DNA of 64,000 nt from assembly GCA_965216025.1 (NCBI GenBank), contig CBDCEX010000017.1, positions 307,390 to 371,389 of the forward strand, in the 5' to 3' direction. This document shows, in pieces, positions 1,228-63,357 of the stretch. A program made the position numbers and the translations under genes. Position 1 is the first letter of the stretch, and the number at the start of each line of letters is the position of its first letter. The stretch comes from Dehalococcoidia bacterium (GTDB lineage: Bacteria > Chloroflexota > Dehalococcoidia > Lucifugimonadales > UBA3495). Under the pieces are notes generated by a model. The model saw only the letters and a program-made list of their open reading frames with translations, was not told the DNA's origin and did not search any database.

Positions 1228-1250
1228 AGGGGCGCACGGCGGTGCGTCCC
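1228..1250. repeat. imperfect copy of GC-rich palindromic repeat (GGGGCGCACGGCCGTGCGCCCC family)
   Basis: AGGGGCGCACGGCGGTGCGTCCC. Perfect copies occur at 17595-17618 and 53080-53103. Lies downstream of ORF 862-1128, so it may act as a terminator hairpin. Confidence 0.6.
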
Positions 1251-1337
1251 ATTGGTATCAACTTAAACGTTTGGTGTGAAATCCAGCTATGTCACCAGTC
1301 GAGCACGGTGGCAAAAAGGCAGGAGCAAAATCTATAT

Positions 1338-3392
1338 ATGGTGCCACCGAGCGACATCTTCGGAGTAATTCCCACCTGGATCGGGGTGTGCCTGGCCGTC
1401 CTGATCGCCTCTTCCCTGGGCGGTTATGCCCTGTACCGTAGGGTCTTCTGGCTGGTCATGCAGGGCAAGCCGGTAGCCCGCTTCGACCGCCCCCTGGAAC
1501 GCTTGACCGGAGCCATTACCATTGTGCTGGGGCAGCGCAAGGTGCTCCAACGGGTGGGTAGCACCGACCCCCGCAGTAAAGGCATGGACCTGGCAGGCAT
1601 CGGGCATGCCAGCATTTTTTGGGGCTTTCTGTCCTTCTCTTTAAGCTATCTGATCTTCATTTTCGGTGGAGTAATTTGGCCCCCATTGCCAGAGACCCTG
1701 CTAACCGAAACCGGTGTGAGAGTCTTCAGCATATACCTGGACATATTTGCGCTGGTGATTCTGCTGGCCCTGGTCTGGGCCCTGTCCCGGCGCTGGCTGG
1801 CCAAGCCTCATCGGCTGCGCTTTGACCTGACCCGCAAGGGCGAGTCGGTGATCATTGTGGGGCTGACCGGTGGCCTGATGATTGCCACCCTACTGGTGCA
1901 CGCCTTTTACGTGGCCGAGGGCGGCGCCGGTCCGGAAGCGGGGGTACTAATCGGCGGCGCGTTAGGGCGCTGGTTTGGCAGCCTGGGGCTAACTCCCTCC
2001 GCAGCCGGTGTCCTCCAGACCATATCCTGGTGGGTTCACCTGGGGATAATCCTGGGCTTCGGCGTATACATTCCCTTCTCCAAGCACATCCACATGGTGG
2101 CCGCTCCGCTGAACGCCTACTTCCGTTCTCTGGAACCGCGGGGCGCCCTGGCGACCATCGACCTGGAAAACGCTGAGCATTTCGGGGCCGGCAGGGTCCA
2201 GGACTTCACCTGGAAAGAGCTGCTGGACGGCTACGCCTGCGCGGTCTGTGGCCGCTGCACCGACGTTTGCCCCGCCAATCTCACCGGCAAGCTGCTGTCC
2301 CCCATGCACATCGTGGAGAATCTCAAAGCCCACATGCTGGAAATCGGGCACCAGGGACCGCGTAATCCCCAGCATGTTGAGCCCCAATCGATCATCGGCA
2401 ATGCCATTCCAGAGCAGGCGATCTGGGACTGCGTCTCCTGTGGAGCCTGCATGGAAGAGTGTCCGGTGGTGGTGGAGCATGTGCCGACTATCATCGACCT
2501 GCGCCGCAACCTGATCCTGGAGGAATCCAAGATTCCTGAAACCGGCATGAACGCCCTGCTCAGCATGGAGCAGAGGGGTCATCCCTGGCGGGGCACCCAG
2601 TATTCTCGCACGGACTGGGCCGAGGGCTTGGAAGTGCCGACGCTGGCGGAAAACCCCGACGCCGAAATTCTGCTCTGGGTGGGCTGCACCGCCGCACTGG
2701 AGCAGCGCAGCCAGGGGATCGCCCGGTCCATGGCCAAGGTTCTCAAATCCGCCGGGGTCGACTTCGCCATTCTGGGAGAGGAGGAGACTTGCACCGGTGA
2801 CCCGGCGCGGCGGATGGGCAACGAGTATCTGTTTCAGATGATGGCCAAGCAGGCTATTGGCACCCTAAATCAGCACAACGTGAAGAAGATAGTCACCCTG
2901 TGTCCCCACTGCTTTAATACCATGCGCAACGAGTACCCCCAGTTTGACGGGCATTTCGAAGTGCTGCACTACAGCCAGCTGGTCGATGAGCTGATCCGCC
3001 AGGGCCGGATCAAGCCGATCAAGATGATCAATGCCACCGTGGCCTACCACGACTCCTGTTATTTGGGGCGGCACAACGGAATCTACGATCAGCCCCGCAA
3101 CGTGGCCAAGGCCATCCCCGGACTGAAACTGGTGGAAATGTCGCCGCGCTGCCGGGAAAAGGGATTCTGCTGCGGGGCGGGCGGTGGACATATGTGGATC
3201 GAGGAGAGCCAGGGAGAGCGAATCAACCACGCCCGCACCGACCATTTTCTGGAGACTGAAGCCGATGTCGTCGGCGTGTCCTGTCCCTTCTGCCTGCAAA
3301 TGATGACCGAGGGAATCCAAGCCAAGGGCCGGGACGGCGATAGGCAAGCCAAGGACGTGCTGGAGTTGCTGGCGGAGAGTTTGGAGGAGTAG
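1338..3392 (+). CDS. membrane-anchored Fe-S oxidoreductase: multi-TM domain (NarI/DsrM-like by topology only) fused to an HdrD/GlpC/DsrK-like domain
   Basis: The ORF-track start at 1242 (GTG) lies inside the palindrome. ATG 1338, preceded by AGGAGC, is more plausible. The first ~300 aa are hydrophobic. Two 4Fe-4S motifs (CAVCGRCTDVCP, CVSCGACMEECP) and two CCG-type motifs (CPHCFNTM, CPFCLQMM) follow. Confidence 0.8.
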   Translation: MVPPSDIFGVIPTWIGVCLAVLIASSLGGYALYRRVFWLVMQGKPVARFDRPLERLTGAITIVLGQRKVLQRVGSTDPRSKGMDLAGIGHASIFWGFLSFSLSYLIFIFGGVIWPPLPETLLTETGVRVFSIYLDIFALVILLALVWALSRRWLAKPHRLRFDLTRKGESVIIVGLTGGLMIATLLVHAFYVAEGGAGPEAGVLIGGALGRWFGSLGLTPSAAGVLQTISWWVHLGIILGFGVYIPFSKHIHMVAAPLNAYFRSLEPRGALATIDLENAEHFGAGRVQDFTWKELLDGYACAVCGRCTDVCPANLTGKLLSPMHIVENLKAHMLEIGHQGPRNPQHVEPQSIIGNAIPEQAIWDCVSCGACMEECPVVVEHVPTIIDLRRNLILEESKIPETGMNALLSMEQRGHPWRGTQYSRTDWAEGLEVPTLAENPDAEILLWVGCTAALEQRSQGIARSMAKVLKSAGVDFAILGEEETCTGDPARRMGNEYLFQMMAKQAIGTLNQHNVKKIVTLCPHCFNTMRNEYPQFDGHFEVLHYSQLVDELIRQGRIKPIKMINATVAYHDSCYLGRHNGIYDQPRNVAKAIPGLKLVEMSPRCREKGFCCGAGGGHMWIEESQGERINHARTDHFLETEADVVGVSCPFCLQMMTEGIQAKGRDGDRQAKDVLELLAESLEE

Positions 3393-3560: not shown

Positions 3561-4358
3561 GTGGCAACCGTGGTGCTGTTAGTGGGCCTCTGGAGCCAAC
3601 TGGAAAGGTTTTTTGTCTTCTTTCCCACCGCGGAGGTTAGATACACTCCCGAGGATGTGGGGCTGGACTACGAGGAGGTCTTTTTCCCCACCTCCGATGG
3701 CCACCGCCTCCACGGCTGGTACATCCCCGGTGACTCCGACACCACTTTGCTCTGGTTCCACGGTAACGGCGGCAACATCGGCCATCGGGTGGACGAGCTG
3801 GCGCTGGTCCATGCTCGCCTGGATGTAAACGTGTTCATCTTCGACTACCGGGGCTACGGCAACAGCGAGGGTAGTCCTTCCGAGCGGGGCATTTATCGGG
3901 ACGCCCGGGCGGCGCTGGCATACCTGCGGACGCGGCCGGAGCTGGCCCCGGATCAGATCGTTTACCTCGGCAGATCGCTGGGGGCGGCGGTAGCAATCGA
4001 GCTGGCCACCGACCAGCCGCCGGCCGGTCTGGTGTTGGTGGCTCCCTTCGCCTCCCTGGGCGATATGGCCCGCATCGCCTACCCCTATCTACCTCTGAAC
4101 TGGTTGCTGGGCAACCGCTACAACTCGGTGGCCCGCATTTCCCAACTGCACCAGCCGGTGCTCATACTCCACGGCGATCAGGACGAAATCGTGCCCCTGT
4201 CTCAGGGCGAGAAATTGCTGGAGGCGGCCAATCCGCCCAAGAGTTTTCAGGTCCTACCCGGCGCCGGTCATAACGACACCTATTCCGCAGCGGGCAACAT
4301 TTACTGGATTGCCTTGAGTGAGTTTCTCAGCGGCTTGGCCACATCCCCCAGCCGTTGA
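3561..4358 (+). CDS. alpha/beta hydrolase (BEM46-like)
   Basis: HGNGGNIGHR, nucleophile elbow GRSLGAAVA and HGDQDEIVP. N-terminal TM helix. Start is GTG per the ORF track; the exact start is uncertain. Confidence 0.8.
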   Translation: MATVVLLVGLWSQLERFFVFFPTAEVRYTPEDVGLDYEEVFFPTSDGHRLHGWYIPGDSDTTLLWFHGNGGNIGHRVDELALVHARLDVNVFIFDYRGYGNSEGSPSERGIYRDARAALAYLRTRPELAPDQIVYLGRSLGAAVAIELATDQPPAGLVLVAPFASLGDMARIAYPYLPLNWLLGNRYNSVARISQLHQPVLILHGDQDEIVPLSQGEKLLEAANPPKSFQVLPGAGHNDTYSAAGNIYWIALSEFLSGLATSPSR

Positions 4359-4424
4359 CATACCAGTCCACCCAACCTATTATGCTGCTAGCCGGATACT
4401 CCCGGATTCTTAAGGAGGTCGATA

Positions 4425-4688
4425 GTGACAACCGCTAAAAAGATGGAAATAGAAATCCTTTACTGCTGGGATTGAGGACACGCCCTGCGTGCTGCCTGGA
4501 TGGCAGGAGAAGCTCTGTCCCGCCGCGGCGAAAACATCACCAATTTCAAGCTAACCCCCGGGCCCCACGGCAAGTTTGACGTGATAATCGACGGCGAGGT
4601 TATCGCCGAGCATCGGCACGAGCCCAACGCCCACATCTTCCCGGATATAGAGGACTTGATGAAGGCCATCGCTCAGCGGGCGGACTAG
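4425..4688 (+). CDS. SelW/Rdx-family thioredoxin-like selenoprotein (in-frame UGA = Sec at 4473-4475)
   Basis: AAGGAGG at 4412-4418, then GTG at 4425. The frame is the same as the 62-aa ORF at 4500 and is interrupted only by TGA 4473. The read-through gives TTAKKMEIEILYCWD-U-GHALRAAWMAGE, a CxxU motif followed by an LRAAW signature. Hairpin CTGCC-TGGAT-GGCAG lies at 4492-4506. Confidence 0.7.
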
Positions 4689-4834: not shown

Positions 4835-5299
4835 ATGTCAGTCGTAGATGGGGCCATCACGCTGGGGCCAGGCGAAGGCAGGGTAATTCAGGTACCTGGC
4901 CATCCAATTACTTACAAGGCCACGACAGAGGGTACTGGAGGTGCCTACTCGTTGCTTGAGGTGGTCGTGGCAGGCGAAGGGCCGCCACAACATATCCACA
5001 AAGCCGAGGAAGAGGCATTCTATGTTCTGGAGGGAGAGGTCAACATCAAGATAGGAGAAGAGACGATCAGAGGCACTGCTGGATCCTTTGTCCTCATCCC
5101 AAGAGGTACAGTCCATACTTTCTGGAATACTGGGCCAACGCATGCCAAGCTATTGGCTATCTTCTCTCCGCCAGGATTCGAACAGTTCTTTGTTGAGGTT
5201 GTTGGCGACGAAGAAGTAGATACAGCCACCTTCGTTGAAAGGGGCATGGCCGTCGCTGAGAAATACAACCTGGAAATCGTGGGGCCTCCTCTTGGATAA
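4835..5299 (+). CDS. cupin domain protein
   Basis: Cupin motifs HIHKAEEEAFYVLEGEV and GSFVLIPRGTVHTF. 154 aa. Confidence 0.75.
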   Translation: MSVVDGAITLGPGEGRVIQVPGHPITYKATTEGTGGAYSLLEVVVAGEGPPQHIHKAEEEAFYVLEGEVNIKIGEETIRGTAGSFVLIPRGTVHTFWNTGPTHAKLLAIFSPPGFEQFFVEVVGDEEVDTATFVERGMAVAEKYNLEIVGPPLG

Positions 5300-5387
5300 C
5301 GTTCCAGGTGCAATATGGGGATAATTACCTCTTCCGAAGGGGATATAGGGGGATTTGGATCTCTCAAGATTACAAATTGCTTCAGGT

Positions 5388-5681
5388 TCACACTCCGGAG
5401 ATGATTTCCGTATCATAGTCCAGCAGCTCTAGATCCGGCCGGGTGTCGACGACGAAAGAGACCATCTGCGCCAAGACCTCATCGGCTCGGCCGGCATCAT
5501 TGCTGACGCTACAAGCCACCAGGGTCAGCCGTTGCCACAGCTCCGCATCCTCCCCCTCTGCCACTGACACGTTGAACTTGTTGTGAATTCGAGAGGTCAG
5601 GGAACGCGCCACCTGTCGTTTCCCCTTCAAGCTATGATTTTCCGGCAAATAGAGCGCCATCCGGCATATGCCAACGTGCAA
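5388..5681 (-). CDS. DUF503 (YlxP-like) family protein
   Basis: LPENHSLKGKRQVARSLTSRIHNKFNVSVAEGEDAELWQRLTLVACSVSND matches the DUF503 pattern (SLKxKR...KFNVSVAE...W). Confidence 0.8.
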   Translation of the reverse strand: MHVGICRMALYLPENHSLKGKRQVARSLTSRIHNKFNVSVAEGEDAELWQRLTLVACSVSNDAGRADEVLAQMVSFVVDTRPDLELLDYDTEIISGV

Positions 5682-5811
5682 CTCGCACCTCCCCGCAGAG
5701 CTATTCCGTTTCCCCCGGCACCTGCCGCCCAGGAACCCTTTAGCGGGGTCCTGCCGGGCGCGCCGCCACCGGAGTTCGCCCGTAGTTAGGTAAGCTGGTC
5801 ACACTGCGGCC

Positions 5812-5840
5812 TTGACTAGGTAGTTACCACCCTTTAGATT
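5812..5840 (+). promoter_or_regulatory. candidate sigma70-type promoter upstream of rex
   Basis: TTGACT (5812-5817), 17-nt spacer, TAGATT (5835-5840). About 115 nt upstream of the rex ATG. Confidence 0.3.
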
Positions 5841-5955
5841 ATATGACAACGCGGCGAAATCGGGATCAGAGGCAGCCGAAAGGATTCTTTTAGCAGCCCT
5901 TTATGGTACTCTAACGCCAAATCCCCTATTCCAGACCGGTCCGCTGAGGAGTCCA

Positions 5956-6615
5956 ATGCGGGAGTTGGCGGAAACTCCATCCCAGCGCCCACAGCAACGA
6001 ACTGACGTGCCTGAAGTGGTGGTCGCCCGACTGCCTCAGTATGTGCGCGTGCTCAACGTGCTGCTCTCGGATGGGGTTCAGGTAGCCAACTCCCAAATGC
6101 TTGGCGAAAAGCTGCAAGTGACTCCGGCCCAGATAAGGAAGGACCTGAGCTACTTTGGCCGGTTTGGGAAGCAGGGCCGGGGCTATAGTGTACGCCACCT
6201 GCTGGATGAGCTTAAGCAGATCTTGGGTCTCAACTCCCACTGGAATGTAGTCGTGATCGGCGTTGGCAGACTGGGCCGGGCGATTCTAAGCTACCCTGGA
6301 TTCACCCCCGACGGTTTCCACCTGGTAGCGGCATTGGATAACAATCCTGGCCTGGTGGGGCAAGACGTGGATGGCCTGGTAGTAAGGCCGGTGGAAGAGC
6401 TGAACCAAGTAGTCAAAGAGTATGGCATCAGCATCGCCGTCGTCGCCGTGCCCGGTGTTCATACCCAGGGAGTAGTCGACCGGCTGGTAGAATGTGGGAT
6501 ACGGGCCATACTCAACTACGCTCCCACCACGCCTCAGGTGCCACCGGACGTGAACATCCGCAACATCGACCCGGTATTATCGCTGCAATCCATGACCTTT
6601 TATCTGGCGAACTAG
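5956..6615 (+). CDS. rex: redox-sensing transcriptional repressor Rex
   Basis: VVARLPQYVRVL...LGEKLQVTPAQIRKDLSYFGRFGKQGRGYSV followed by a Rossmann domain (VVVIGVGRLGRAIL). Confidence 0.9.
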   Translation: MRELAETPSQRPQQRTDVPEVVVARLPQYVRVLNVLLSDGVQVANSQMLGEKLQVTPAQIRKDLSYFGRFGKQGRGYSVRHLLDELKQILGLNSHWNVVVIGVGRLGRAILSYPGFTPDGFHLVAALDNNPGLVGQDVDGLVVRPVEELNQVVKEYGISIAVVAVPGVHTQGVVDRLVECGIRAILNYAPTTPQVPPDVNIRNIDPVLSLQSMTFYLAN

Positions 6616-7061
6616 CCGGCTCCCGGTCCGCCCACGGCGCCTCGCATATCGGCCCTGGCCCGGCGGCGGCGCACCACATTCAGCCGTATTTGGGCCCGGC
6701 GCATGGCAATGGCTACCTGCTCCAACTCAATTTCGGCCCCCCGGCCCGCCATCCCCTCACTGGCCCGTTCCATCGCTGCCTGGGCCCGTTCCTCGTCTAT
6801 CTCGTCAGACCGCTCGGCGGCGTCGGCCAGCACGGTTACCTGGTTGTCCAGCACTTCCAAGAATCCGCCGCTAACGGCGAGATAGGTCTCTTCGCCATCC
6901 TTGCGGATAATCAGCTCGCCCGGTTGCAGGCTGCTCATCAAAGGCGCGTGGTGGGGCAGGATGCCCAGCTGACCCTCCAAGCCGGGAGCTATCACCAGAT
7001 CCACGTCGTCGCTGTAGACCCGGCGTTCAGCGGTAATTATTTCCAGTCGCATCGGCGCCAT
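6612..7061 (-). CDS. atpC: F1 ATP synthase epsilon subunit
   Basis: RLEIITAERRVYSDDVDLVIAPGLEGQLGILPHHAPLMSSLQPGELII. Last gene of the atp operon. Its stop overlaps the rex stop within CTAG (6612-6615). Confidence 0.9.
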   Translation of the reverse strand: MAPMRLEIITAERRVYSDDVDLVIAPGLEGQLGILPHHAPLMSSLQPGELIIRKDGEETYLAVSGGFLEVLDNQVTVLADAAERSDEIDEERAQAAMERASEGMAGRGAEIELEQVAIAMRRAQIRLNVVRRRRARADMRGAVGGPGAG

Positions 7062-7178: not shown

Positions 7179-9499
<2,321 letters not shown>

Positions 9500-11319: not shown

Positions 11320-11871
11320 CTAGGCGGCCCTTGCGATTACGTCGGAACGGACCTGCCGGCGCAGGCCCTCCAGCCGGGAGCGCACGCTGCCGTCTAGCAG
11401 TTGGTCGCCGACCTGGATGATGACCCCACCCAGAATGGTTTCATCCACCTCGGTGGAGACGACGACATCCTTTTGTATCAGCTCCGAGACGAAGCGGCTG
11501 ATTCGCTCCACCTCCGCAGCGTCGAGAGGAACCGCGGAGGTGACCGCCACCCGCTGCCGGCCCCGGTACTCGTCCACCAGCTGGCTATAGCTCAAGTACA
11601 CATCACGAATCAGTCTAGCGGAACCGCGCGAGATCAGCAGCGTTACCAGGTTCCTCACCAGCGGGTTGGTATCCGGAAAGACCGCTTGGATGCTTCGATT
11701 TTTTTCCGACAGGGGAACCTTGGCGTGCTCTAGAAAGGAGCTGAATTCCTCATCCTGCAGCACCTGACTGATGGAATCCAGATCCCCGGCCCATTGGTCC
11801 AGCTGGTCCTGCTCGACCGCAAGCTGGAAGATAGCTTGGGCGTAGCGTTTACCGGAAACCCGTTTGGCCAA
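11320..11871 (-). CDS. atpH: F1 ATP synthase delta (OSCP) subunit
   Basis: Operon position between atpF and atpA. RYAQAIFQLA...GGVIIQVGDQLLDGSVRSRLEGLRRQV is the typical delta C-terminus. Confidence 0.85.
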   Translation of the reverse strand: MAKRVSGKRYAQAIFQLAVEQDQLDQWAGDLDSISQVLQDEEFSSFLEHAKVPLSEKNRSIQAVFPDTNPLVRNLVTLLISRGSARLIRDVYLSYSQLVDEYRGRQRVAVTSAVPLDAAEVERISRFVSELIQKDVVVSTEVDETILGGVIIQVGDQLLDGSVRSRLEGLRRQVRSDVIARAA

Positions 11872-11878
11872 CCTGCGC

Positions 11879-12382
11879 CTAACCTTGCCTCAGGCTGTTT
11901 CCGCCCTCTTCCAGCACCTGGGAAATCAGCTCTTCGTGAGCCTGGCGGTCCAGGGATCGCCGGATAACCCTTTCCGCGGCGGTGATAGCCAGGTCTCCGA
12001 AGCCGACCCGCACCTCGGCAATGGCCGCATCCCGCTCCCGCTGAATATCCGTCCTGGCCCGCTCCACAAAGGTGGTCGCCTCCTGGCGGGCCCGCTCCAT
12101 CTCCTCTTCCCTAAAGCGGTCCGAGGCCTCCTTGGCCTGGTCGAGCAACCGCTGCCCCTCACGGCGGGCTTCGTTCAACTGCTCTTCGATGGCGGCCTGG
12201 GAGCTGGCGGCCTCGTCTCGGGCCCGGTCCGCGGCGGCCAGGCTGTCGCTAATGCGCTCCGACCGCTGGTCTAAAGCCCGCAGCAGCGGCTTATAGGCCA
12301 GGACGTAGAGCACCGCCAGCAGAATGCCGAAGTTCACCAGGTAAAATATTAATAAAGGGACGTTTATCCCTAGTTGCGTCAC
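11879..12382 (-). CDS. atpF: Fo ATP synthase b subunit
   Basis: N-terminal TM (INVPLLIFYLVNFGILLAVLYVLAYKPL) followed by a long charged helix. Operon position. Confidence 0.85.
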   Translation of the reverse strand: MTQLGINVPLLIFYLVNFGILLAVLYVLAYKPLLRALDQRSERISDSLAAADRARDEAASSQAAIEEQLNEARREGQRLLDQAKEASDRFREEEMERARQEATTFVERARTDIQRERDAAIAEVRVGFGDLAITAAERVIRRSLDRQAHEELISQVLEEGGNSLRQG

Positions 12383-12413
12383 TGCTACTCCCAGTGTTCT
12401 GGGTCGGGCCGGT

Positions 12414-12683
<270 letters not shown>

Positions 12684-12783
12684 CTAATAGTTTGGCCTAT
12701 CGAGTTGGCCCGAAGTTCAGCTTTTGCCGGGCGATTTCGACCGGCCTACTTCAACCAGACGAATACTTTCTTTTCAGTGCCCG

Positions 12784-13800
12784 CTAATGCTCTTGGTGGC
12801 TGGTAGCCACGGAAATGAAAACCAGGGTAAGTCCGGCGAAAATCACGGATTGGATCAGCCCCACCAGCAGCTCTAGTCCGTACACCAAGTTGGTGAACAC
12901 CAGAGGCAGCAGAAAGGTTATCATCACCACTAGAATCTCTCCAGCGGTCATGTTGCCAAATAGCCGGAAGGTGAAGGCCACGATTCGAACAGCCTCGCTG
13001 AGCAACTCCAGCAGCCCAACGCCAATATCGATCAGCCCTTGCATCGGTCCCTTCCGGATCAGACTGCCGAAGGCGAAAAACTTCTTCAAATAGCCAAAGC
13101 CGTTGGACCGGAAACCCCAATATTCAACAAAACCAAAGGATATCAGCGCCAGGGCCAAGGGCATGTTCAGGTCGGTACCGGCCGGTCGCAGCAGATGGGC
13201 CTTGATCTCCCCGTGGCCATCGACGAAACCCAGAAACTGGTAGAAGGGGAGCAAGGCCAGCCAGGCATTGAAGAGCACAAAGAAAAAGATGGTCGCCACT
13301 ATCGGAAATGTCTTCCGCGCCATTTCCGGGCCCAATACCCCGCTGGCGAAGCTGAGCACGCCCTCGAATAGCACTTCCACCAATGATTGCAGCCGGCCTG
13401 GAATCATGCTTTTCTTGCGAGCGCCCAGGGCAAACAGCAGGATCAACACGGTACTGGCGAACAACGCCGAAAGCATGGTGTTGGTAATCGCGAATTCAGT
13501 GATCGCCAGTGGTGTGGAGTGGTGCTCCTCGGCTTCGCCGCTGGCACCCGCTGGGGCATCCCCAGTCCCACTCGGGACCTTATCATGCCCGGCCGAAGGG
13601 GTGAAGCCCAGATGCTTGTCTCGGGAAGAAGCGGGAAACACAGACTGCGGGGGAAGGTGGATTTCCGGTTGAGGGATAAAAGGGGACCGGCCCAGCGCTG
13701 CTGAGCCTATGCCTCCGCCCGCCACACCCACCAACGCCAAAACGGCTAGAACCAGTCCGAAGACCATGAGCAGTCTTTTGGCTGCTGGACTCGACGGCAC
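12784..13800 (-). CDS. atpB: Fo ATP synthase a subunit with ~100-aa N-terminal extension
   Basis: C-terminal FTFRLFGNMTAGEILVVM (conserved Arg region), LVGLIQSVIFAGLTLVFI. The N-terminus has an extra TM plus a low-complexity segment. Start abuts the atpZ stop. Confidence 0.85.
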   Translation of the reverse strand: MPSSPAAKRLLMVFGLVLAVLALVGVAGGGIGSAALGRSPFIPQPEIHLPPQSVFPASSRDKHLGFTPSAGHDKVPSGTGDAPAGASGEAEEHHSTPLAITEFAITNTMLSALFASTVLILLFALGARKKSMIPGRLQSLVEVLFEGVLSFASGVLGPEMARKTFPIVATIFFFVLFNAWLALLPFYQFLGFVDGHGEIKAHLLRPAGTDLNMPLALALISFGFVEYWGFRSNGFGYLKKFFAFGSLIRKGPMQGLIDIGVGLLELLSEAVRIVAFTFRLFGNMTAGEILVVMITFLLPLVFTNLVYGLELLVGLIQSVIFAGLTLVFISVATSHQEH

Positions 13801-22116: not shown

Positions 22117-23805
22117 GTGGCGGAGGTTTCTTTGCCCGACAATTCAAACAACCCAACTCCCCCCAACCCCGAAAACAGCGCCGCGCGCTGGAGGCAAAGG
22201 GCGGCCGCCGCTCCTCAGCGTAAATCCGGTTACAAGACCCTTTCTCAGATCCCCTTGGAGCCCTTGTACACCGCCGAGCATGTTTCGCAGCTGGATTACC
22301 AGCGGGACCTGGGCATGCCTGGGGAGTATCCCTACCTGCGGGGAGTCCATCCCAGCGGGTACCGGGGCCGGCTCTGGACCATGCGCATGTTCGCCGGATT
22401 CGGCCTTCCGGAGGAAACCAATCAGCGGTTCAAGTTCCTGCTGGAGGGCGGTCAGACCGGTCTGAGCGTAGCCTTCGACATGCCCACCCTCTACGGTTAC
22501 GACACCGACGATGCCCCGGCGGCCGGAGAATTTGGCAAGTGCGGAGTGGCTGTCTCTTCGCTGGCCGATATGGAGACGCTCTTCGACGGCATACCCCTGG
22601 GCCAGATAACCACCTCCATGACCATCAACAGTCCGGCGGCCATAATCTGGGCGATGTACCTGGCCGTGGCCGAAAAACAGGGCGTGCCTATGAACCAGAT
22701 CGGCGGCACGCTGCAAAACGATATCCTCAAGGAGTACCTGGCTCAAAACGAGTACATCTTCCCGCCGGAGCCCTCCATGCGCCTGGTGGTGGACACCGTG
22801 GAGTTTGCCAGCCAATTCCTGCCGGCCTGGAACCCCATCAGCATCAGCGGCTACCACATCCGGGAGGCGGGCTCCAACGCGGTGCAGGAGCTGGCCTTTA
22901 CCCTGGCCGACGGCTTGGAGTACGTGCGGCACTGCCTGGACCGGGGACTGGCGATAGACGACTTTGCCCCCCGGCTCAGCTTCTTCTTCAACGTGCACAA
23001 CGACTTTTTCGAGGAGATAGCCAAGTTCCGCGCCGCCCGTCGCATCTGGGCCCGGGAGATGAAGGACACTTTTGGGGCGCAAGACCCCCGCTCTCATTTA
23101 CTGCGTTTCCACGCCCAAACCTCTGGCGCCGCCCTCACCTCCCAGCAGCCGGAGAACAATGTTATGCGGGTTTCCCTCCAGGCCCTGGCCGCCGTCCTGG
23201 GAGGTTGCCAGTCGCTCCACACCAACGCCAAGGATGAAGCCTGGGCCCTCCCCTCCGAGGAAGCGGCACTGCTGGCATTGCGCACCCAGCAAATAATCGC
23301 GCATGAGACCGGTGTGACCGACACGATGGACCCCCTGGGGGGCAGCTACTTCCTGGAAACACTGACCGGCCAGGTAGAAGCAGGAGCCCGGGACTATTTC
23401 CGCCGCATCGAGGACGTTGGTGGTGTGATACCGGCCCTGAAGTCCGGGTTCTTCCAGCACGAGATTGCCGAGGCGTCCTACCTCTATCAGCTGGAAGAGG
23501 ACCGCAAGGAACGCATCACGGTGGGGGTTAACCAGTACGCCAACGCCGACCCCCTGCAAATTTCATTGCTACGGGTAAACGCGGAGGGGGAGCAGCGCCA
23601 AATTCAGCAACTCCAACGGGTCCGCCGCCGCCGGGACAACCGGGATGTTTCGGTCAAGTTGCGGGCCTTGGAGCAGGCGACCCGGGGCTCCGCCAACCTG
23701 ATGCCACCCCTACTGGAGGCGGTCAAGGCTTACGCAACTCTGGGAGAGATGATGGGAGTTTTCCGGGAAGTGTTTGGGGAGTACCAACCCAGCTGGGGAT
23801 TTTAG
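22117..23805 (+). CDS. methylmalonyl-CoA mutase family large (catalytic, TIM-barrel) subunit; no B12-binding domain in this ORF
   Basis: [26 protein letters not shown]...[18 protein letters not shown]...[26 protein letters not shown]...FHAQTSG. 562 aa. GTG start. Confidence 0.9.
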
Positions 23806-23856: not shown

Positions 23857-25087
23857 CAGGGCAATCGCGTCTTATTATCGTTCTTAAATTTGTTTAAAAT
23901 AGTAATCATCATGACGAAACTAGGGAGGGGTAGTGATGGTTCAGGCAACAGGCGCACCCATCGCCCAATACTTCGCGGCGTTGGACGACCCGAGGATTGA
24001 TCGTACCAAGCGGCACAAACTTTTGGATATCGTCACCATTGCCCTTTGTGCCACCATCTGCGGCGCTGATTCTTGGGTGGATATCGAGCTCTTCGGCAAC
24101 TGTAAAGAGGAGTGGTTCAAGTCCTTCCTGGAGTTGCCCAACGGTATCCCTTCCCATGATACCTTCGGCGACGTCTTCGCCCGCCTGGACCCAGAGCAGT
24201 TTCAACGCTGTTTCATGGAGTGGGTCCAAGCCGTAGCCCAAGTCACCCAAGGCGAAGTGGTGGCCATCGACGGCAAGACGGTACGGCGCTCCCACGACCG
24301 TACCCTGGGCAAAAAGGCCATTCACATGGTCAACGTGTGGGCCTCGTCCCATGGCTTGGCGCTGGGCCAGACCAAGGTGGACGAGAAGTCCAATGAAATC
24401 ACCGCCATCCCCAAGTTGCTACAGCTGCTGGAGCTCGCCGGTTGCATCATCACCATCGACGCCATGGGCTGCCAGAGGGAGATAGCCCGGGAGATCATTG
24501 AGGCTCAGGCCGACTATCTGCTGGCGGTGAAGGAGAATCAAGGCCGGCTGTACGATGACGTTCGCGACCTTTTCGAGGGCGCCGAGGAATACGACTTCGA
24601 GGGCGTCCCCTATGACTTCGCCCGCACGCTGAACAAGGGCCACGGCCGCCTGGAAACCCGTCAATGCTGGGTCATCACGGACCCGGACTGCCTGGACTAT
24701 CTGCAAAACCGGCAGCAGTGGGCCAACCTCAACGCCGTGGTTAAGGTCACGGCTCAGCGGGAGACGGCAACCGGGACCACGGTCCACTCTCGCTACTATA
24801 TCAGCAGTCTGGCCAGGCCTGCCCAGACTTTGTTGGAGGTCACCCGCCGACACTGGGGCATAGAAAACAGCTTGCACTGGTCTTTGGATGTTACCTTTCG
24901 AGAAGATCACAGCCGGGTACGTAAGGATAGTGGGCCTCAAAACCTGGCAGTCCTGCGCCAGATAGCCCTCAATTTGCTGAAGCAGGAGACCAGCCTTAAA
25001 CGGGGACTTCAAGGTAAACGGCTGAAAGCCGGCTGGGTTGAGGATTACCTACTCAAGGTGCTCCTTGGTTAAGACGCGATTGCCCTG
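23857..25087 (+). mobile_element. ISAs1-family insertion sequence, intact (1231 bp)
   Basis: 18-bp perfect terminal inverted repeats CAGGGCAATCGCGTCTTA (23857-23874) and TAAGACGCGATTGCCCTG (25070-25087). Flanked by the 10-bp direct repeat GGGTTAGATA (23847-23856 and 25088-25097). Confidence 0.9.
23933..25072 (+). CDS. ISAs1-family transposase
   Basis: DPRIDRTKRHKLLDIVTIALCATICGADSWVDIELFG...IDAMGCQREIA...DYLLAVKENQ...RHWGIENSLHWSLDVTFREDHSR. 379 aa, uninterrupted. Confidence 0.9.
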   Translation: MMVQATGAPIAQYFAALDDPRIDRTKRHKLLDIVTIALCATICGADSWVDIELFGNCKEEWFKSFLELPNGIPSHDTFGDVFARLDPEQFQRCFMEWVQAVAQVTQGEVVAIDGKTVRRSHDRTLGKKAIHMVNVWASSHGLALGQTKVDEKSNEITAIPKLLQLLELAGCIITIDAMGCQREIAREIIEAQADYLLAVKENQGRLYDDVRDLFEGAEEYDFEGVPYDFARTLNKGHGRLETRQCWVITDPDCLDYLQNRQQWANLNAVVKVTAQRETATGTTVHSRYYISSLARPAQTLLEVTRRHWGIENSLHWSLDVTFREDHSRVRKDSGPQNLAVLRQIALNLLKQETSLKRGLQGKRLKAGWVEDYLLKVLLG

Positions 25088-32109: not shown

Positions 32110-34377
32110 TCAAGCCGGCTGCCCGTTCTTCTCCCACAACGCCTCTAGAACAGCAGCGGGAGACATGGGCAACTCCTGCATTCTGGTGCCTACCGCGTGG
32201 TAAATGGCATTGGCGATGGCCGCCATGGGGGGAACTATGGGCACTTCGCCGACGCCCCGCACGCCGTAGGGATGCCCGGGATTGGCCACTTCCACGATTA
32301 CCGTGTCAATCATTGGCAAGTCCAGGCTGGTGGGCATTCGGTAGTCCAGGAAGCTGGAGTTAACCATGCCCCCTTCCAGGCTGAAGAAATACTCTTCGTT
32401 GAGCGCCCAACCGATGCCCTGAACCACTCCACCCTGGATTTGGCCTTCCACGTAGCTGGGGTGGATCGCCTTGCCGGCATCCTGTACCGCGGTATAGCGA
32501 AGAATTTCTACCTTGCCCGTCTCGGGGTCCACCTCCACGTCGACGATGTGGGTAGCGAAAGCGCCGCCGGCTCCCCGGGGGTCAACGCTGACCTGACTGG
32601 AGATGGGGCCGCCGCTGCTGTTCAACTGGGCTGCCAGCTCCTTGAAGCTCATTTTCAGGTCGGAGTCGGACTTGTGCTGGAAAACGCCATCAACCAGGTC
32701 CACGTCCTCGGCCGAGACATCCCAGATGGTCGCCGCCCGCTCAATCATCTTAACCTTGATCTCCTGAGCGGCTTCGTAACTGGCCCAGCCGGTGGCGAAG
32801 GTGGTGCGGCTGCCTCCGGTGAGGAAGGTATATCCCACCGAGTCGGTATCCCCCACGCTGGGATGAACATCCTCAGCGGGAATACCCAGAACCTCCGCCG
32901 CCTGCATGGCGATGGATGTCCTGGTGCCGCCGATGTCGGTGGAGCCCTCCACCAGGCTGACTGTACCGTCGGCGTTGACACCGATGCTGCAACTGGATTG
33001 CAATCCGATGTTGAACCAGAATCCGGAAGCCACGCCCCGACCCCGATTCGGCCCTTCCAGCTTGGATTGGTAGTGCTCGGTGTCCCGGGCAGCCTCCAGG
33101 CATTCGATATTGCCGACCCTGGGGAAAACCGGACCATCCACCCGCCGGGTGCCCTCCTTGGAACCGTTGAGCAGCCGAAACTCGATGGGGTCCATTCCCA
33201 GCTTATCGCAAATTTCGTCCACCACCGACTCGGCGGCGAAGGCGGCGTTGGGGGCCGCCGGCGCGCGGTAGGCAGCGGTCTTGGGCTTGTTGACCAGCAC
33301 GTCATAGCCGTCCACCTGGGCGTGCTCGATTACGTAAGGAGCGAAAACGCACTGGGCGCCGGCCGATACCATGGATCCGGGGAATCCGCCGGCCTCGTAG
33401 GCCAAATAGGCCTCGGCGGCGGTGATTTTGCCTTCTTTGGTTGCGCCTATTTTCACCTTTATGTAAGTTCCGGAAGTGGGCCCAGTGCTCTCGAAAACAT
33501 CGGCCCGGGGCATTATTAGCTTCACCGGTTGCCCGGTGCTCTTGGAGAGCAGCGCCGCCAGCGGCTCCAGGTAGAGGGGAATTTTGCCTCCGAAGCCGCC
33601 GCCAATCTCCATTGGAACCACCTTGATTTTTGAAACCGGCAGGTCCAGAACCGTGGCCAAGGCGTCGCGAGCGGAGAAAGCGCCCTGGGTGCTGGTCCAG
33701 ATGGTCAATTGGCCATCGGCGTTCCAAAGAGCGCTGGCGTTCTGGGGCTCTATATAACCCTGGTGTACCGTGGCGGTGGTGAATTCCCGCTCGACCACCA
33801 CGTCGGCCTGCTCGAACCCTTTGGCGGTATCTCCCGCCTCGTGGCGGAGATGAGTGGCTATGTTGCTGTGCCGTTCAGTCCTTTCCCCCAGCTCCGTGGT
33901 GGTCAACTCCTCGTGGAGCAGCGGAGCGTCTTCCTTCATCGCCTCCCGTACGTCCACCAGAGTTTGCAACACCTGGTACTCCACCTGGATCAACGAGGCA
34001 GCGATCTCGGCGATATGGGGGCTGGTGGCGGCTACGGCGGCTACCGCGTGGCCCTTGTACAGGACCTTATCCCGGGCCAGCAGATTATCGCTGGCGAAGC
34101 GCTTTCCGCGATCCGGATCTTCCATCCCAGCCACCGGCATGTCTTGCCCGGTTATTACCGCGCGGACGCCGGGGTAGGCCAAAGCCTGGCTGACATCGAT
34201 GGACTTGATCCGGGCATGAGCGTGGGGGCTGCGGAGGACCTGGCCGTGCAGCAACCCAGACATTTGAAAGTCGCCCCCGTATTTGGCCCGGCCGGTAACC
34301 TTGTCGGTACCGTCATGACGGATGGGTCGAGTCCCCACAACCTTGTATTCTACGTTGGATAGCACCACGTTTGGCAT
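32110..34377 (-). CDS. xanthine dehydrogenase/aldehyde oxidase-family molybdopterin-binding subunit
   Basis: GTDKVTGRAKYGGD...LRSPHAHARIKSID...GGGFGGK...AYRAPAAP...GSTDIGGTRTS...EVPIVPPMAAIANAIYHAVG. 755 aa. No adjacent 2Fe-2S or FAD subunit genes. Confidence 0.9.
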   Translation of the reverse strand: MPNVVLSNVEYKVVGTRPIRHDGTDKVTGRAKYGGDFQMSGLLHGQVLRSPHAHARIKSIDVSQALAYPGVRAVITGQDMPVAGMEDPDRGKRFASDNLLARDKVLYKGHAVAAVAATSPHIAEIAASLIQVEYQVLQTLVDVREAMKEDAPLLHEELTTTELGERTERHSNIATHLRHEAGDTAKGFEQADVVVEREFTTATVHQGYIEPQNASALWNADGQLTIWTSTQGAFSARDALATVLDLPVSKIKVVPMEIGGGFGGKIPLYLEPLAALLSKSTGQPVKLIMPRADVFESTGPTSGTYIKVKIGATKEGKITAAEAYLAYEAGGFPGSMVSAGAQCVFAPYVIEHAQVDGYDVLVNKPKTAAYRAPAAPNAAFAAESVVDEICDKLGMDPIEFRLLNGSKEGTRRVDGPVFPRVGNIECLEAARDTEHYQSKLEGPNRGRGVASGFWFNIGLQSSCSIGVNADGTVSLVEGSTDIGGTRTSIAMQAAEVLGIPAEDVHPSVGDTDSVGYTFLTGGSRTTFATGWASYEAAQEIKVKMIERAATIWDVSAEDVDLVDGVFQHKSDSDLKMSFKELAAQLNSSGGPISSQVSVDPRGAGGAFATHIVDVEVDPETGKVEILRYTAVQDAGKAIHPSYVEGQIQGGVVQGIGWALNEEYFFSLEGGMVNSSFLDYRMPTSLDLPMIDTVIVEVANPGHPYGVRGVGEVPIVPPMAAIANAIYHAVGTRMQELPMSPAAVLEALWEKNGQPA

Positions 34378-47929: not shown

Positions 47930-49066
47930 TTAAACAAAGCTGAGCTGTTCGAAGTTCCCTCCCACCACCGGCACCGGGTCCAGTCCCAGCCATTTCTCAA
48001 CGATGGTGCTGTAGAAGCCCCGAAAGTCATAGTTGGGAGCCAGGTCCCCCTGGGACAGATCCTCCGGCTTGAGGGAGGGATATTCGTTATATATCCCACC
48101 CTTGACCTGGTCTCCAATGACAAAGGCGATGCCGCCGGCGCCGTGGTCGGTTCCCGTGCCGTTGTCCTTGACCCGCCGGCCGAATTCGGTGAAGAGGACC
48201 AGGATCAGGTTTTCTCCCGCGTTATGCTCCCGCAGATCGTCGTAGAAATCTCCGATGGCGCGGCCCATGTCGGTCCACAGCTTGGTGTGCTGAGGCACCT
48301 CGTTGAAGTGGGTGTCAAAGCTGCCGTGCTGGGTATAGAAGATCTGGGTACCCAGATCCGCCAGGTAAACCTGCGCCACGCTTCTCAGGCTCTTGGCGAT
48401 GGGCGAGTCGGCGTACTCCACAGTGGAGGAGTATTTCTGGGGAGCGGTCTGGATGACATCAGCGCCGTCCAGCACGTTTTGACCGGTCTGACTCAGGTAG
48501 TCCATTACTGGGCCGCTGCCGATGGTGGGGGCATACATCCTGGCGAACAGGTCCAACATCCGGTCCCGCTCCTGCTCGCTGTTGATGCCTGGGACATTGC
48601 TGAGCACCCCGTAGGAGGCCAGGTCGGATACCGAGGTCACCGGCACGCCGCGCAGCGCCAAAGCCCTGGGCAGACCCTGACCGAAGTTGACCCCGGTAAG
48701 CACGTTCTCGCCCTGAGGGTCCAGGTCCCGAATCACCTTGCCCAGCCATCCCTCGGTACCCACCTTGTCCGGCTCGCAGGTGTGCCAGATGTCCATAGAG
48801 CGGAAATGAGAGCGAGGAGAGTTCTGATAACCGATGCCGTGGATGATGGCGACTTTACCCTCATCGTAAAGCTGCTTCACCGGCCCCATGTTGGAATTGA
48901 AGGCCAGCGTGTCGTCAATAGGCAACACCTGGTCTGCCGGAATCCCAACCTTGGGACGATTGTCCCGATAATAAGGGTTGGTGTAGGGAATGATGGTGTT
49001 GAGGGGGTCATTGGCGCCGGTCATCTGGAGGACCACCACCACTGGTTCTTTCTTGGTAGATGTCAT
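47930..49066 (-). CDS. DUF1501 (sulfatase-like) domain protein
   Basis: ATG 49066 (MTSTKKEPVVVVLQMTGANDPLN) with GGAG upstream; the longer ORF-track start overlaps the upstream gene. C-terminal GTGTDHGAGGIAFVIGDQVKGG. No Tat/Sec signal is seen. Confidence 0.8.
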   Translation of the reverse strand: MTSTKKEPVVVVLQMTGANDPLNTIIPYTNPYYRDNRPKVGIPADQVLPIDDTLAFNSNMGPVKQLYDEGKVAIIHGIGYQNSPRSHFRSMDIWHTCEPDKVGTEGWLGKVIRDLDPQGENVLTGVNFGQGLPRALALRGVPVTSVSDLASYGVLSNVPGINSEQERDRMLDLFARMYAPTIGSGPVMDYLSQTGQNVLDGADVIQTAPQKYSSTVEYADSPIAKSLRSVAQVYLADLGTQIFYTQHGSFDTHFNEVPQHTKLWTDMGRAIGDFYDDLREHNAGENLILVLFTEFGRRVKDNGTGTDHGAGGIAFVIGDQVKGGIYNEYPSLKPEDLSQGDLAPNYDFRGFYSTIVEKWLGLDPVPVVGGNFEQLSFV

Positions 49067-49149
49067 CTCGATAGCTCCTGCTCTGGTAGTTTGGCTGGTC
49101 AAGCCACCCTGGGGAATCTTTGGGATGTACCCGAAATTGTCTGGAAAAC

Positions 49150-50553
49150 CTAGGCGAACTGGTACTCCCGGGAAGCGGCGACCAAGGCCAGCATAATGCC
49201 AATACGCCGTTCCGTGGCGGCGGCGTCCTCGGTTGTGTCCCACTTCAGGTCGCCATTCTCCTGGGCCTGGGTCAGCAGCTCCTGACGGGTAGATTGGTTG
49301 ACTTCCAATGGTCCGATCAAGTCCAGGCAGCCGTCCAAGAACTCCTCCGGAGAGAGGGTTCCTCGTGACCGCAGCTGATCCACCACCGATTTGATTCCCG
49401 GCAAACTGGTGTTGGAGAGGAATTTGGCGGCGAAGTTGACCCGCCGCACCAGGGCGCCGCCATCGATCCATTCTTCGCCGGTGTGCCAGCTTTCCACGCT
49501 GGGGGGATTAAGCAGCTCCTGTCCCTGGAAGGCGCACTCAGCGGCCACCTCCTGGTAGCCCTGCTGCGGGCCGGAAAGCCCCTGGGCCATCCGCACCGTG
49601 CCGACCACCAGCTCCGCCGGGCTCTTCACGCGGGAAAAGCGGGCATTCTTGAAGAATTCCGAGTTGAACAGCATCCGCAGCACGGCGGCTATGCTGTAGT
49701 TGGAGTCGCTGTAAGCCTGTTCCAGCAGTCTGATAGCCTCGGCATCGACCGGTGGCGTGATGTTCCAGCTGGGAACCTGGGGCTCATCCGCGACAAAAAA
49801 GTTGTACAGGTGGCGGCTGAGAAAGCGGGCGGTTGCCGGCTGCCGCACCAGGATATCCACGATGTCGCCGCCGTCGAAATTGCCGGTTTGCCCCAGGAAA
49901 GTCTTTTCGCCGGGGTCGTGGTCTTCCGGCTTGTATTCAAAATCCCAGTAGAAGCGGCCCAAGGGCAGCCGGGGGATTTTGGGTGCGATGGTCCAACCGG
50001 TAAAAGCACGAGATGCCTCTTTGATGTCATCCTCGGAGTAGTTGCCGACGCCCATGGAGAAAAGCTCCAATAGCTCCCGGCCCCAATTCTCGTTTATGGC
50101 GCCTTTGTGGTTGCCGTTGTTATCCAGCCAGTAGATCATGGCCGGATTCTTGGCCAGCTCCAGCAAGAAGTTGGGAAAGGTTCCCAGGGCGTGCCGGCGG
50201 AACATGGCGATCTGCGCGGTCAGCTCGGGAGGATTGTCGATTTTGGAGTTGCCGGTGGCGAAGAGTTGATGCCAAAAGAGCACCATTTTCTCTTCCAGGG
50301 GACGGCGGGTGTTGATCATCCGGTACATCCACTGGGCCTGCGCCTGAACCGGCGCCATGCCTCCCTCATAGTTGGGGAAGTACCGGAAAAGCAGATCGTC
50401 ATCCACCGGTTCCTGGCTTTCCGGGTTCAGCAACTCTTCCACAGTCGCTTCGTAGCCCTTGGCGACTCGCTCCTCCAGCTCGGCGCGGGTAGCTCCAAAC
50501 CCGGCCCGCCGCAACAGGTGGGCCATCAAGGCTATTTCCTCTCGATTTGACAT
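49150..50553 (-). CDS. DUF1800 domain protein
   Basis: MAHLLRRAGFGATRAELEE...LFWHQLFATG...MIYWLDN. Forms the usual DUF1800-DUF1501 gene pair. Confidence 0.8.
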   Translation of the reverse strand: MSNREEIALMAHLLRRAGFGATRAELEERVAKGYEATVEELLNPESQEPVDDDLLFRYFPNYEGGMAPVQAQAQWMYRMINTRRPLEEKMVLFWHQLFATGNSKIDNPPELTAQIAMFRRHALGTFPNFLLELAKNPAMIYWLDNNGNHKGAINENWGRELLELFSMGVGNYSEDDIKEASRAFTGWTIAPKIPRLPLGRFYWDFEYKPEDHDPGEKTFLGQTGNFDGGDIVDILVRQPATARFLSRHLYNFFVADEPQVPSWNITPPVDAEAIRLLEQAYSDSNYSIAAVLRMLFNSEFFKNARFSRVKSPAELVVGTVRMAQGLSGPQQGYQEVAAECAFQGQELLNPPSVESWHTGEEWIDGGALVRRVNFAAKFLSNTSLPGIKSVVDQLRSRGTLSPEEFLDGCLDLIGPLEVNQSTRQELLTQAQENGDLKWDTTEDAAATERRIGIMLALVAASREYQFA

Positions 50554-62854: not shown

Positions 62855-63357
62855 GGAGCCGGTAGACTGGGTGACCGCCGCCTCGAATTCTCGAGGGGGA
62901 GGAAAGTCCGGGCTCCAACGGACAAGGTGCTGGGTAACCCCCAGGCTTTCGCGGCGTTAGTAATGACGCCGTGGGGGACGGAAAGTGGCACAGAAACACA
63001 CCGCCTCCGGTTTTTCGATCAGAAAGTTGGGCTAGTTGGGGGAAGGGGATCTGGACCGGCGGTAAGGTTGAAATCGGACGGTAAGAGCGTCCGGTCGTCT
63101 GCGGTGACGCAGCGACGGTCAAACCCCACTTGGAGCAAGGCCGAATAGGGGGAGTAGGAGGGTCCGACTCATCCCCGGGTTGGCCGCTGGACCCCGATGG
63201 CAACATCGTCCCGTTGTTGGGAGCCGTCCGTCCTGCTGGGCGCCGGTGGGCTAGATAGATGGTCACCGTCTCCGGGTATTGCCAGGGCCTTCCGGTTTTC
63301 CGGGAGGTCCGTCGAATTCCGGGGATACAAAACCCGGCTTACAGGTCTGCCGGTTCC
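62855..63357 (+). ncRNA. rnpB: RNase P RNA, bacterial type A
   Basis: P4 signature GGAGGAAAGTCCGGGCTCCA. Also GGCACAGAAACACACCGCC, GGTAAGGTTGAAATCGGACGGTAAGAGCGTCCGG, CAAACCCCACTTGGAGCAAGGCCGAATAGGGG, CTAGATAGATGGTCACC and ACAAAACCCGGCTTACAG. P1 pairs GGAGCCGGTAGAC (62855-) with GTCTGCCGGTTCC (-63357). Confidence 0.9.

Follow-up and report, generated by a model that had tools for sequence, protein, structure and literature searches.

A probable Rdx/SelW-like selenoprotein gene of a Dehalococcoidia bacterium with a conserved in-frame UGA and a candidate SECIS hairpin

The window, i.e., the whole stretch of 64,000 nucleotides from a Dehalococcoidia bacterium that was analysed, carries at positions 4425-4688 of the forward strand a gene of 87 codons plus stop, which starts with GTG (4425-4427) and ends with TAG (4686-4688). 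The frame between these two points is broken by a single TGA at 4473-4475 and translates as VTTAKKMEIEILYCWD*GHALRAAWMAGE..., the asterisk standing for that codon. Read through, it yields a product of 87 residues, (M)TTAKKMEIEILYCWD-U-GHALRAAWMAGEALSRRGENITNFKLTPGPHGKFDVIIDGEVIAEHRHEPNAHIFPDIEDLMKAIAQRAD, with the redox motif C14-W-D-U17, where U17 corresponds to the TGA. A sequence-only reading had placed AAGGAGG at 4412-4418, the GTG at 4425 and an open frame with one lone TGA here, and all of its coordinates proved correct. As it also said, the list of open reading frames offers nothing at this place apart from a 62-aa ORF from ATG 4500. The features of the locus are the following:

1242-3392, forward strand: HdrD/GlpC-like Fe-S protein, 716 aa, membrane-anchored, with two CCG domains (HdrD/GlpC/TfrB-like)
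3561-4358: alpha/beta hydrolase, next in the order upstream of the Rdx gene
4355-4383, forward strand: sigma-70-type promoter, -35 TTGACA at 4355-4360, 17-nt spacer, -10 TATTAT at 4378-4383
4412-4418, forward strand: Shine-Dalgarno sequence AAGGAGG, read from the sequence, 6 nt 5' of GTG 4425
4425-4688, forward strand: full Rdx/SelW-like coding sequence, based on translation, Pfam Rdx match, PDB alignments and conserved start
4464-4466, forward strand: codon TGC for Cys14, the first residue of the CxxU motif
4473-4475, forward strand: in-frame UGA at the position of U17, aligned with the second Cys of CxxC
4492-4506, forward strand: SECIS-like hairpin CUGCC-UGGAU-GGCAG
4500-4688, forward strand: 62-aa ORF of the gene callers from ATG 4500, the C-terminal 71% of the protein
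4835-5299: cupin, found in the closest relatives only
5388-5681, reverse strand: DUF503 protein, downstream of the cupin gene
5956-6615: redox repressor Rex, 1.3 kb downstream of the Rdx gene
beyond Rex, reverse strand: ATP synthase operon

The promoter at 4355-4383 matches the consensus in 11 of 12 positions, lies about 40 nt 5' of the start codon and presumably drives the Rdx gene. A scan of one genome per species yielded 59 further loci, which together with the window gene make up 60 sequences, 58 of them distinct. The gene order around the Rdx gene is kept in 20-40 of the 59 loci, and the gene for the Fe-S protein is found two genes upstream in at least 23. In other bacteria, GlpC-like and Hdr proteins count among the selenoprotein families; the gene for the Fe-S protein at this locus showed no in-frame TGA. 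When the window was searched for the Rex operator TTGTGAA-N4-TTCACAA with up to three mismatches, the sole match was located at position 15849, which is the chance level, and none was present near the Rdx gene. On the whole, the neighbourhood hints at a redox setting. It is apparently being reshaped by mobile elements, as indicated by transposases in the window and in a near-identical contig (L060). The window encodes a DDE transposase (DDE_Tnp_1 and DDE_Tnp_1_assoc domains) at 23933-25072 on the forward strand, while in L060 an IS66-family transposase (11451-12803) sits between the genes for DUF503 and Rex and the cupin gene is absent.

Further away from the Rdx gene, the window contains a class A bacterial RNase P RNA (62859-63357, forward strand, 219 bits), the only Rfam family that passed its gathering score. 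The reverse strand encodes two large subunits of the xanthine dehydrogenase/CO dehydrogenase type (32110-34377 and 53133-55442), which are paralogues and bind molybdopterin, and genes for DUF1800/DUF1501 proteins (47930-50553), a LigB-like dioxygenase and a family III CoA-transferase are also present. The catabolic genes of the window are consistent with the capacity for oxidative catabolism that has been reported for Chloroflexota of the SAR202 type.

Membership of the read-through protein in the SelW/Rdx family, as proposed from the sequence, was borne out by profile searches. With U written as C, the protein matched Pfam Rdx (PF10262, formerly pfam05169; COG3526) practically end to end, with 48 bits (E = 1.5e-12) against a gathering cutoff of 22.6 bits, residues 8-83 being aligned to positions 1-73 of the 74 model positions. 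The 62-aa ORF alone reached 19.3 bits, which is under the cutoff, and covered model positions 20-73. The narrower NCBIfam model for SelT/SelW/SelH, TIGR02174, gave 30.1 bits at a cutoff of 34.2, again over nearly the full length (residues 9-83 on positions 1-73 of 74), and this combination of a sub-cutoff score with a full-length match marks the protein as a divergent Rdx member. A search of the PDB returned six solved bacterial Rdx proteins with E values from 4e-9 to 9e-7 (2FA8, 2OKA, 2OBK, 3DEX, 2P0G and 2OJL), the alignments of which run from residues 1-8 onward. Homologues thus reach upstream of Met 4500, one of the points on which the proposal could be checked. Another was whether they carry Cys at the position of the UGA. 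In 2FA8, 2OKA and 2OBK, the second Cys of the CxxC motif falls exactly there and the first on C14; 3DEX, 2P0G and 2OJL match over the same region of the query. The alignment places 'YCtqC..LRAgWmAqE' over 'YCwdU..LRAaWMAgE', such that LRA(a/g)W of the solved proteins lies over LRAAW, and the CxxU motif is situated between the first beta-strand and the LRAxW helix (EILY-C-W-D-U-GHALRAAW). By homology to the solved Rdx structures, the protein would adopt a thioredoxin-like alpha/beta fold. It aligns over almost its full length with Atu0228 (2FA8), 2OKA, 2OBK, 2P0G, SAV_2001 (3DEX) and 2OJL; unlike it, these six carry Cys at the position of the UGA and lack the HRHEPNAH insertion described further below.

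In databases the gene is usually cut. A protein search returned 130 relatives, the best 120 of which are 56-78 aa long, correspond to the C-terminal 52-76% of the query and begin 3' of the TGA, either at the Met that follows the hairpin or at an alternative start codon within LRAAW. The exact 62-aa product is recorded in 169 index blocks of public metagenome assemblies. Both observations agree with the earlier expectation that standard gene callers would truncate or miss the gene. Several homologues bear the name 'predicted Rdx family selenoprotein' in IMG.

All 59 loci stem from metagenome-assembled genomes of Dehalococcoidia or Chloroflexota, and the tblastn alignments cross the stop codon. 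Complete chromosomes with an orthologue include OZ244817.1 (84% identity) and OZ219748.1, and the 893-kb contig ERZ28669063:ctg45752 has the identical gene. The sequence EI(L/E)YC(W/Q/H)(D/H)*(G/R/K/S)HALRAAWMAGE is present in essentially all orthologues, so that the segment from EIxYC to LRAAW, the conservation of which had been a further point to be checked, is indeed conserved. In all 60 sequences the frame is interrupted by TGA, and neither TAA or TAG nor a Cys codon ever takes its place, while the true terminators of the same 60 genes are mixed (TAG 30, TGA 18, TAA 12). In the codons from -7 to -1 relative to the TGA, the residues E, I, Y and C are kept in 97-100% of the sequences and third positions are free, which points to purifying selection in that frame. 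Cys14 itself is retained in 97% of the 58 distinct sequences with synonymous variation between TGC and TGT. The start codon resides exactly 16 codons 5' of the TGA in 54 of the 60 loci, four others having it at -15 or -17, and motifs of the GGAGG, GAGG or AGGAG type precede the aligned start in nearly all orthologues. A promoter matching at least nine of the 12 consensus positions was found within 130 nt 5' of the start in 40 of the 60 loci, mostly at a distance of some 30-40 nt and with diverged spacers. Bacterial selenoprotein genes are recognized by an in-frame UGA that is kept among orthologues and by coding conservation on either side of it, and both were found here. Note that a few copies may be decayed or affected by long-read assembly errors: L026 has extra in-frame stops, L032 a change of Cys to Tyr and no start codon, and L059 a frameshift. 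L035, which has no start codon, is perhaps decayed or error-laden as well.

The hairpin 4492-4506 consists of CUGCC (4492-4496), the loop UGGAU (4497-4501) and GGCAG (4502-4506). Its stem begins 16 nt and its loop 21 nt after the UGA, the apical loop is closed by two C-G pairs, and G occupies loop positions 2 and 3. When the window sequence is considered alone, this structure is weak and no better than chance. The bare 15-nt hairpin has a free energy of -7.3 kcal/mol, which is about the stability threshold of -7.5 that the bSECISearch model of Zhang and Gladyshev from 2005 is said to apply, and an equally good hairpin in the same range of positions follows 6.9% of the 1631 UGA triplets in the window. 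The fold of the 58-nt region did not differ from that of shuffled sequences (z = 0.19); the hairpin has an ensemble probability of about 0.3 and is not the minimum free energy (MFE) fold of that region, in which a first hairpin, CACGC-CCU-GCGUG at 4479-4491, appears. The latter was dismissed because it is not conserved among orthologues.

Comparison of the orthologues gave a different picture. RNAalifold on 56 sequences returned exactly the hairpin 4492-4506 as consensus and nothing else, with 95.7% of the hairpin cells paired. The stem pair 4493/4505 is U-A in 32, C-G in 11, C-C in 12 and C-A in one of the 56 orthologues. All twelve C-C sequences have GGC next and refold as GCCG-CC[UGGAU]GG-C-CGGC, which is a bulged stem of 7 bp with the same loop and closing pairs. 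On a neighbor-joining tree built without the hairpin columns, the state of this pair changed at least 11 times, including swaps between U-A and C-G in several clades. Neither the observed pairing nor the observed covariation was reached in any of 500 shuffles in a control that ignores phylogeny. The small G-containing stem-loop directly 3' of the UGA that is expected for a bacterial selenoprotein gene is therefore present according to the comparative data. Of the original proposal of a SECIS-like hairpin, the geometry stands and has gained conservation and compensatory change, but as a single sequence the element remains weak. Bacterial SECIS elements are stem-loops that lie within the coding sequence a little 3' of the UGA and have G in their small apical loop (PMC1088965). 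The hairpin resembles the SECIS of E. coli fdhF and the bacterial consensus in being a coding-region stem-loop with its loop 21 nt after the UGA and G at loop positions 2-3, and differs from the fdhF element in that the conserved stem comprises 5 bp with a variable lower extension and no obvious bulged U.

In principle, the gene could encode a selenoprotein and the hairpin could still be a by-product of the codons for Ala-Ala-Trp-Met-Ala-Gly, the real SECIS being different or larger, e.g., a structure in the shifted register UGCCUG-GAUGG-CAGGCG or a lineage-specific element. The loop, which spells UGG-AUG for Trp-Met, and three of the five stem pairs are fixed by the protein sequence, and since the loop codons cannot vary, conservation of the loop is inseparable from that of the protein. 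Moreover, many MFE folds of orthologues use the shifted register or longer-range pairs, with hairpin probabilities ranging from 0 to 0.99, and 12.6% of bacterial selenoprotein genes are devoid of a canonical SECIS (PMC13326102). The synonymous sites speak against a by-product. All 58 distinct sequences have C at the third position of Ala+7 (4496, part of the loop-closing pair), even in the three loci where codon +7 specifies Val in place of Ala. No other four-fold site of the gene is invariant, the entropies of the others being 0.5-1.85 bits. The free third positions facing each other at 4493/4505 form U-A or C-G in 45 of the 58 sequences, and 12 of the 13 others have the bulged stem with the same loop. 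The shifted register competes with the hairpin in some sequences and is broken in many others, namely where Gly+11 is encoded by GGA or GGG and where Ala+10 is encoded by GCC. We therefore regard a by-product as unlikely, although of all alternatives considered here it fares best, and conclude that the hairpin appears to be under selection at the RNA level and is positioned as a bacterial SECIS would be.

With a probability of about 0.9, the stretch 4425-4688 on the forward strand constitutes one gene, the product of which is an Rdx (SelW/SelT/SelH-like) protein of 87 residues with a thioredoxin fold and the motif Cys14-Trp-Asp-Sec17, in which selenocysteine would be specified by the UGA at 4473-4475. 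Very improbable by comparison is that the UGA is read through as something other than Sec, be it by near-cognate tRNA-Trp or tRNA-Cys or by a lineage-specific reassignment, leading to a CxxW or CxxC centre. This idea draws on the fact that no Sec machinery was found in the window or in the related loci searched, and on the usage of stop codons. The stops of the 24 Pfam-validated genes in the window (e.g., 7179-8639, 22117-23805 and 53133-55442) are TAG in 14, TAA in seven and TGA in three cases, making TGA the rarest terminator although the GC content is 58.8%. In GC-rich genomes of such a level, TGA is usually the commonest stop; its rarity here may be tied to heavy use of UGA for Sec in the lineage or may be sampling noise. 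Yet TGA does end those three window genes as well as 18 of the 60 orthologues of the Rdx gene, and as an ordinary terminator in the window it excludes a global reassignment of the code. TGC, TGT and TGG are each one mutation away from TGA, but none of them occurs at this position in any of the 60 species-level genomes. In the Rdx family, some members of which are known to contain Sec, this is the site that holds Cys or Sec (PMC2398784), and a structure under RNA-level constraint lies where a bacterial SECIS belongs.

Hardly credible at all is that the UGA is a true stop, whether in a pseudogene or at the end of a leader peptide of 16 residues that is followed by a separate protein of 62 aa starting at ATG 4500: gene-caller output matches this everywhere, the ATG is present and a few orthologues (L026, L032 and L059) look decayed, but ATG 4500 lacks a Shine-Dalgarno sequence and is located within the loop of the hairpin, the 62-aa piece comprises a partial Rdx domain without strand beta-1 and the redox motif, the 16 upstream codons are under in-frame purifying selection behind a conserved start, Shine-Dalgarno sequence and promoter, and a decaying pseudogene would not hold TGA in every one of 60 sequences.

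For a selenoprotein gene, the following course of events can be proposed. Transcription would proceed from the gene's own promoter at 4355-4383, and translation probably starts at GTG 4425 behind AAGGAGG, as is supported by conservation. Once the ribosome arrives at the UGA, the hairpin 4492-4506 would act as a bacterial SECIS, bind SelB and recruit SelB-GTP-Sec-tRNA(Sec), such that Sec would be inserted in place of termination. Judging from the family, the resulting CxxU centre between strand beta-1 and helix alpha-1 would cycle between the selenol/thiol and the selenenylsulfide state in a putative oxidoreductase of the thiol-disulfide type.

Our searches for the machinery of Sec insertion covered the window and about 670 kb of related loci. 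The 64-kb window contains no tRNA, the Rfam scan of it gave no match to tRNA-Sec, and no sel gene was detected by Pfam among its 20 largest ORFs. Neither tRNA-Sec nor SelD was found in the related loci with ARAGORN and a SelD search alone, the latter being a tblastn run with an E. coli SelD query that produced no match in 64 sequences. Two candidates in the locus L045 were rejected. A tRNA-SeC reported by ARAGORN at 6784-6872 on the reverse strand, at a distance of 1.5 kb from the Rdx orthologue, is regarded as a false positive, for which Rfam gave neither tRNA nor tRNA-Sec even at E <= 10; the region resembles a pair of GC-rich hairpins. The gene directly following that orthologue (5289-6542, forward strand) encodes a SelA-like PLP enzyme that matches MJ0158/UPF0425 with 197 bits, below the cutoff of 304; we take MJ0158/UPF0425 to be a SelA-related family of unknown function that is known not to be SelA. 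A crude screen of the window for further ORFs broken by a TGA close to Cys, Ser or Thr, in which a high GC3 was demanded, gave only candidates that look antisense, and the Rdx gene itself was lost at the GC3 filter. Our literature search for selenoproteins of SAR202 bacteria found nothing. In BSepDB, the ten bacteria richest in selenoproteins include two MAGs of Dehalococcoidia, which have 49 and 46 selenoprotein genes (PMC13326102). The gene itself and this literature suggest that the source organism possesses Sec machinery.

The protein and its closest relatives represent a His-rich variant of the Rdx family. U-G is followed by a His, and the canonical W-x-R-K..G-FP is replaced by AEHRHEPNAHIFPD, which contains an insertion of three residues when compared with the solved homologues. 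The invariant histidines, which may lie next to the active site, are His19 after U-G and His63, His65 and His70 in the inserted HRHEPNAH loop before the F-P motif. The subfamily is small: a search of 1.84 billion cluster representatives gave 21 clusters at 50% identity and no Cys form. The single full-length relative that was found, P0131 (87 aa), has Arg at both redox positions. It reads EIEY-R-HD-R-GHALRAAW, and both changes would be from T to C (TGC to CGC and TGA to CGA); P0131 may be an artefact of sequencing or assembly or a paralogue that has lost its redox function. By these sequence comparisons, the subfamily is apparently restricted to Dehalococcoidia, divergent, His-rich and Sec-only. 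It is conceivable, though improbable, that its members are not plain thiol-disulfide oxidoreductases and that the Sec/Cys/His centre binds a metal or performs other chemistry. If true, this would make them a functionally new branch of Rdx proteins in abundant deep-ocean SAR202-type bacteria.

The gene is a further member of a long-known and very abundant selenoprotein family. Bacterial selenoproteins of the SelW-like/Rdx type were reportedly described by Kryukov and Gladyshev in 2004 and by Zhang et al. in 2005-2008. The gene product shares with them a length of about 80-100 aa, the order of beta-1, CxxU and LRAAW helix and the marine distribution, and the gene shares the in-frame UGA, the small hairpin just 3' of it with G in the apical loop and the routine mis-annotation. 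It differs by its score below the TIGR02174 cutoff, by the 3-residue insertion, by U-G-H together with AEHRHEPNAHIFPD, by its occurrence in Dehalococcoidia/Chloroflexota MAGs only and by the lack of a Cys form among the sequences found. The fold family with its CxxU (or CxxC) motif is also that of eukaryotic SelW, SelH, SelT and Rdx12, which, unlike the candidate within the coding sequence here, have their SECIS in the 3' UTR and use it via SBP2. SelW-like CxxU proteins form the most abundant selenoprotein family of marine prokaryotes (PMC1088965, PMC2398784). Their Sec forms greatly outnumber the Cys forms in the GOS data (427 versus 56; PMC2398784), and the family has been noted for its few Cys homologues (PMC1794560).

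The present gene leaves the general picture of selenoproteins and of the Rdx family as it was. Its chief value lies in the correction of an annotation, as a 62-aa 'hypothetical protein' would in reality be an 87-residue selenoprotein. As a SECIS example, it illustrates how selection at the RNA level may become visible at synonymous sites despite highly conserved codons. For the source organism, a SAR202-like member of the Dehalococcoidia, the trait of Sec decoding is indicated, not proven. If it holds true, selenium would be a micronutrient requirement of this bacterium, in agreement with the selenoprotein-rich Dehalococcoidia already reported (PMC13326102).
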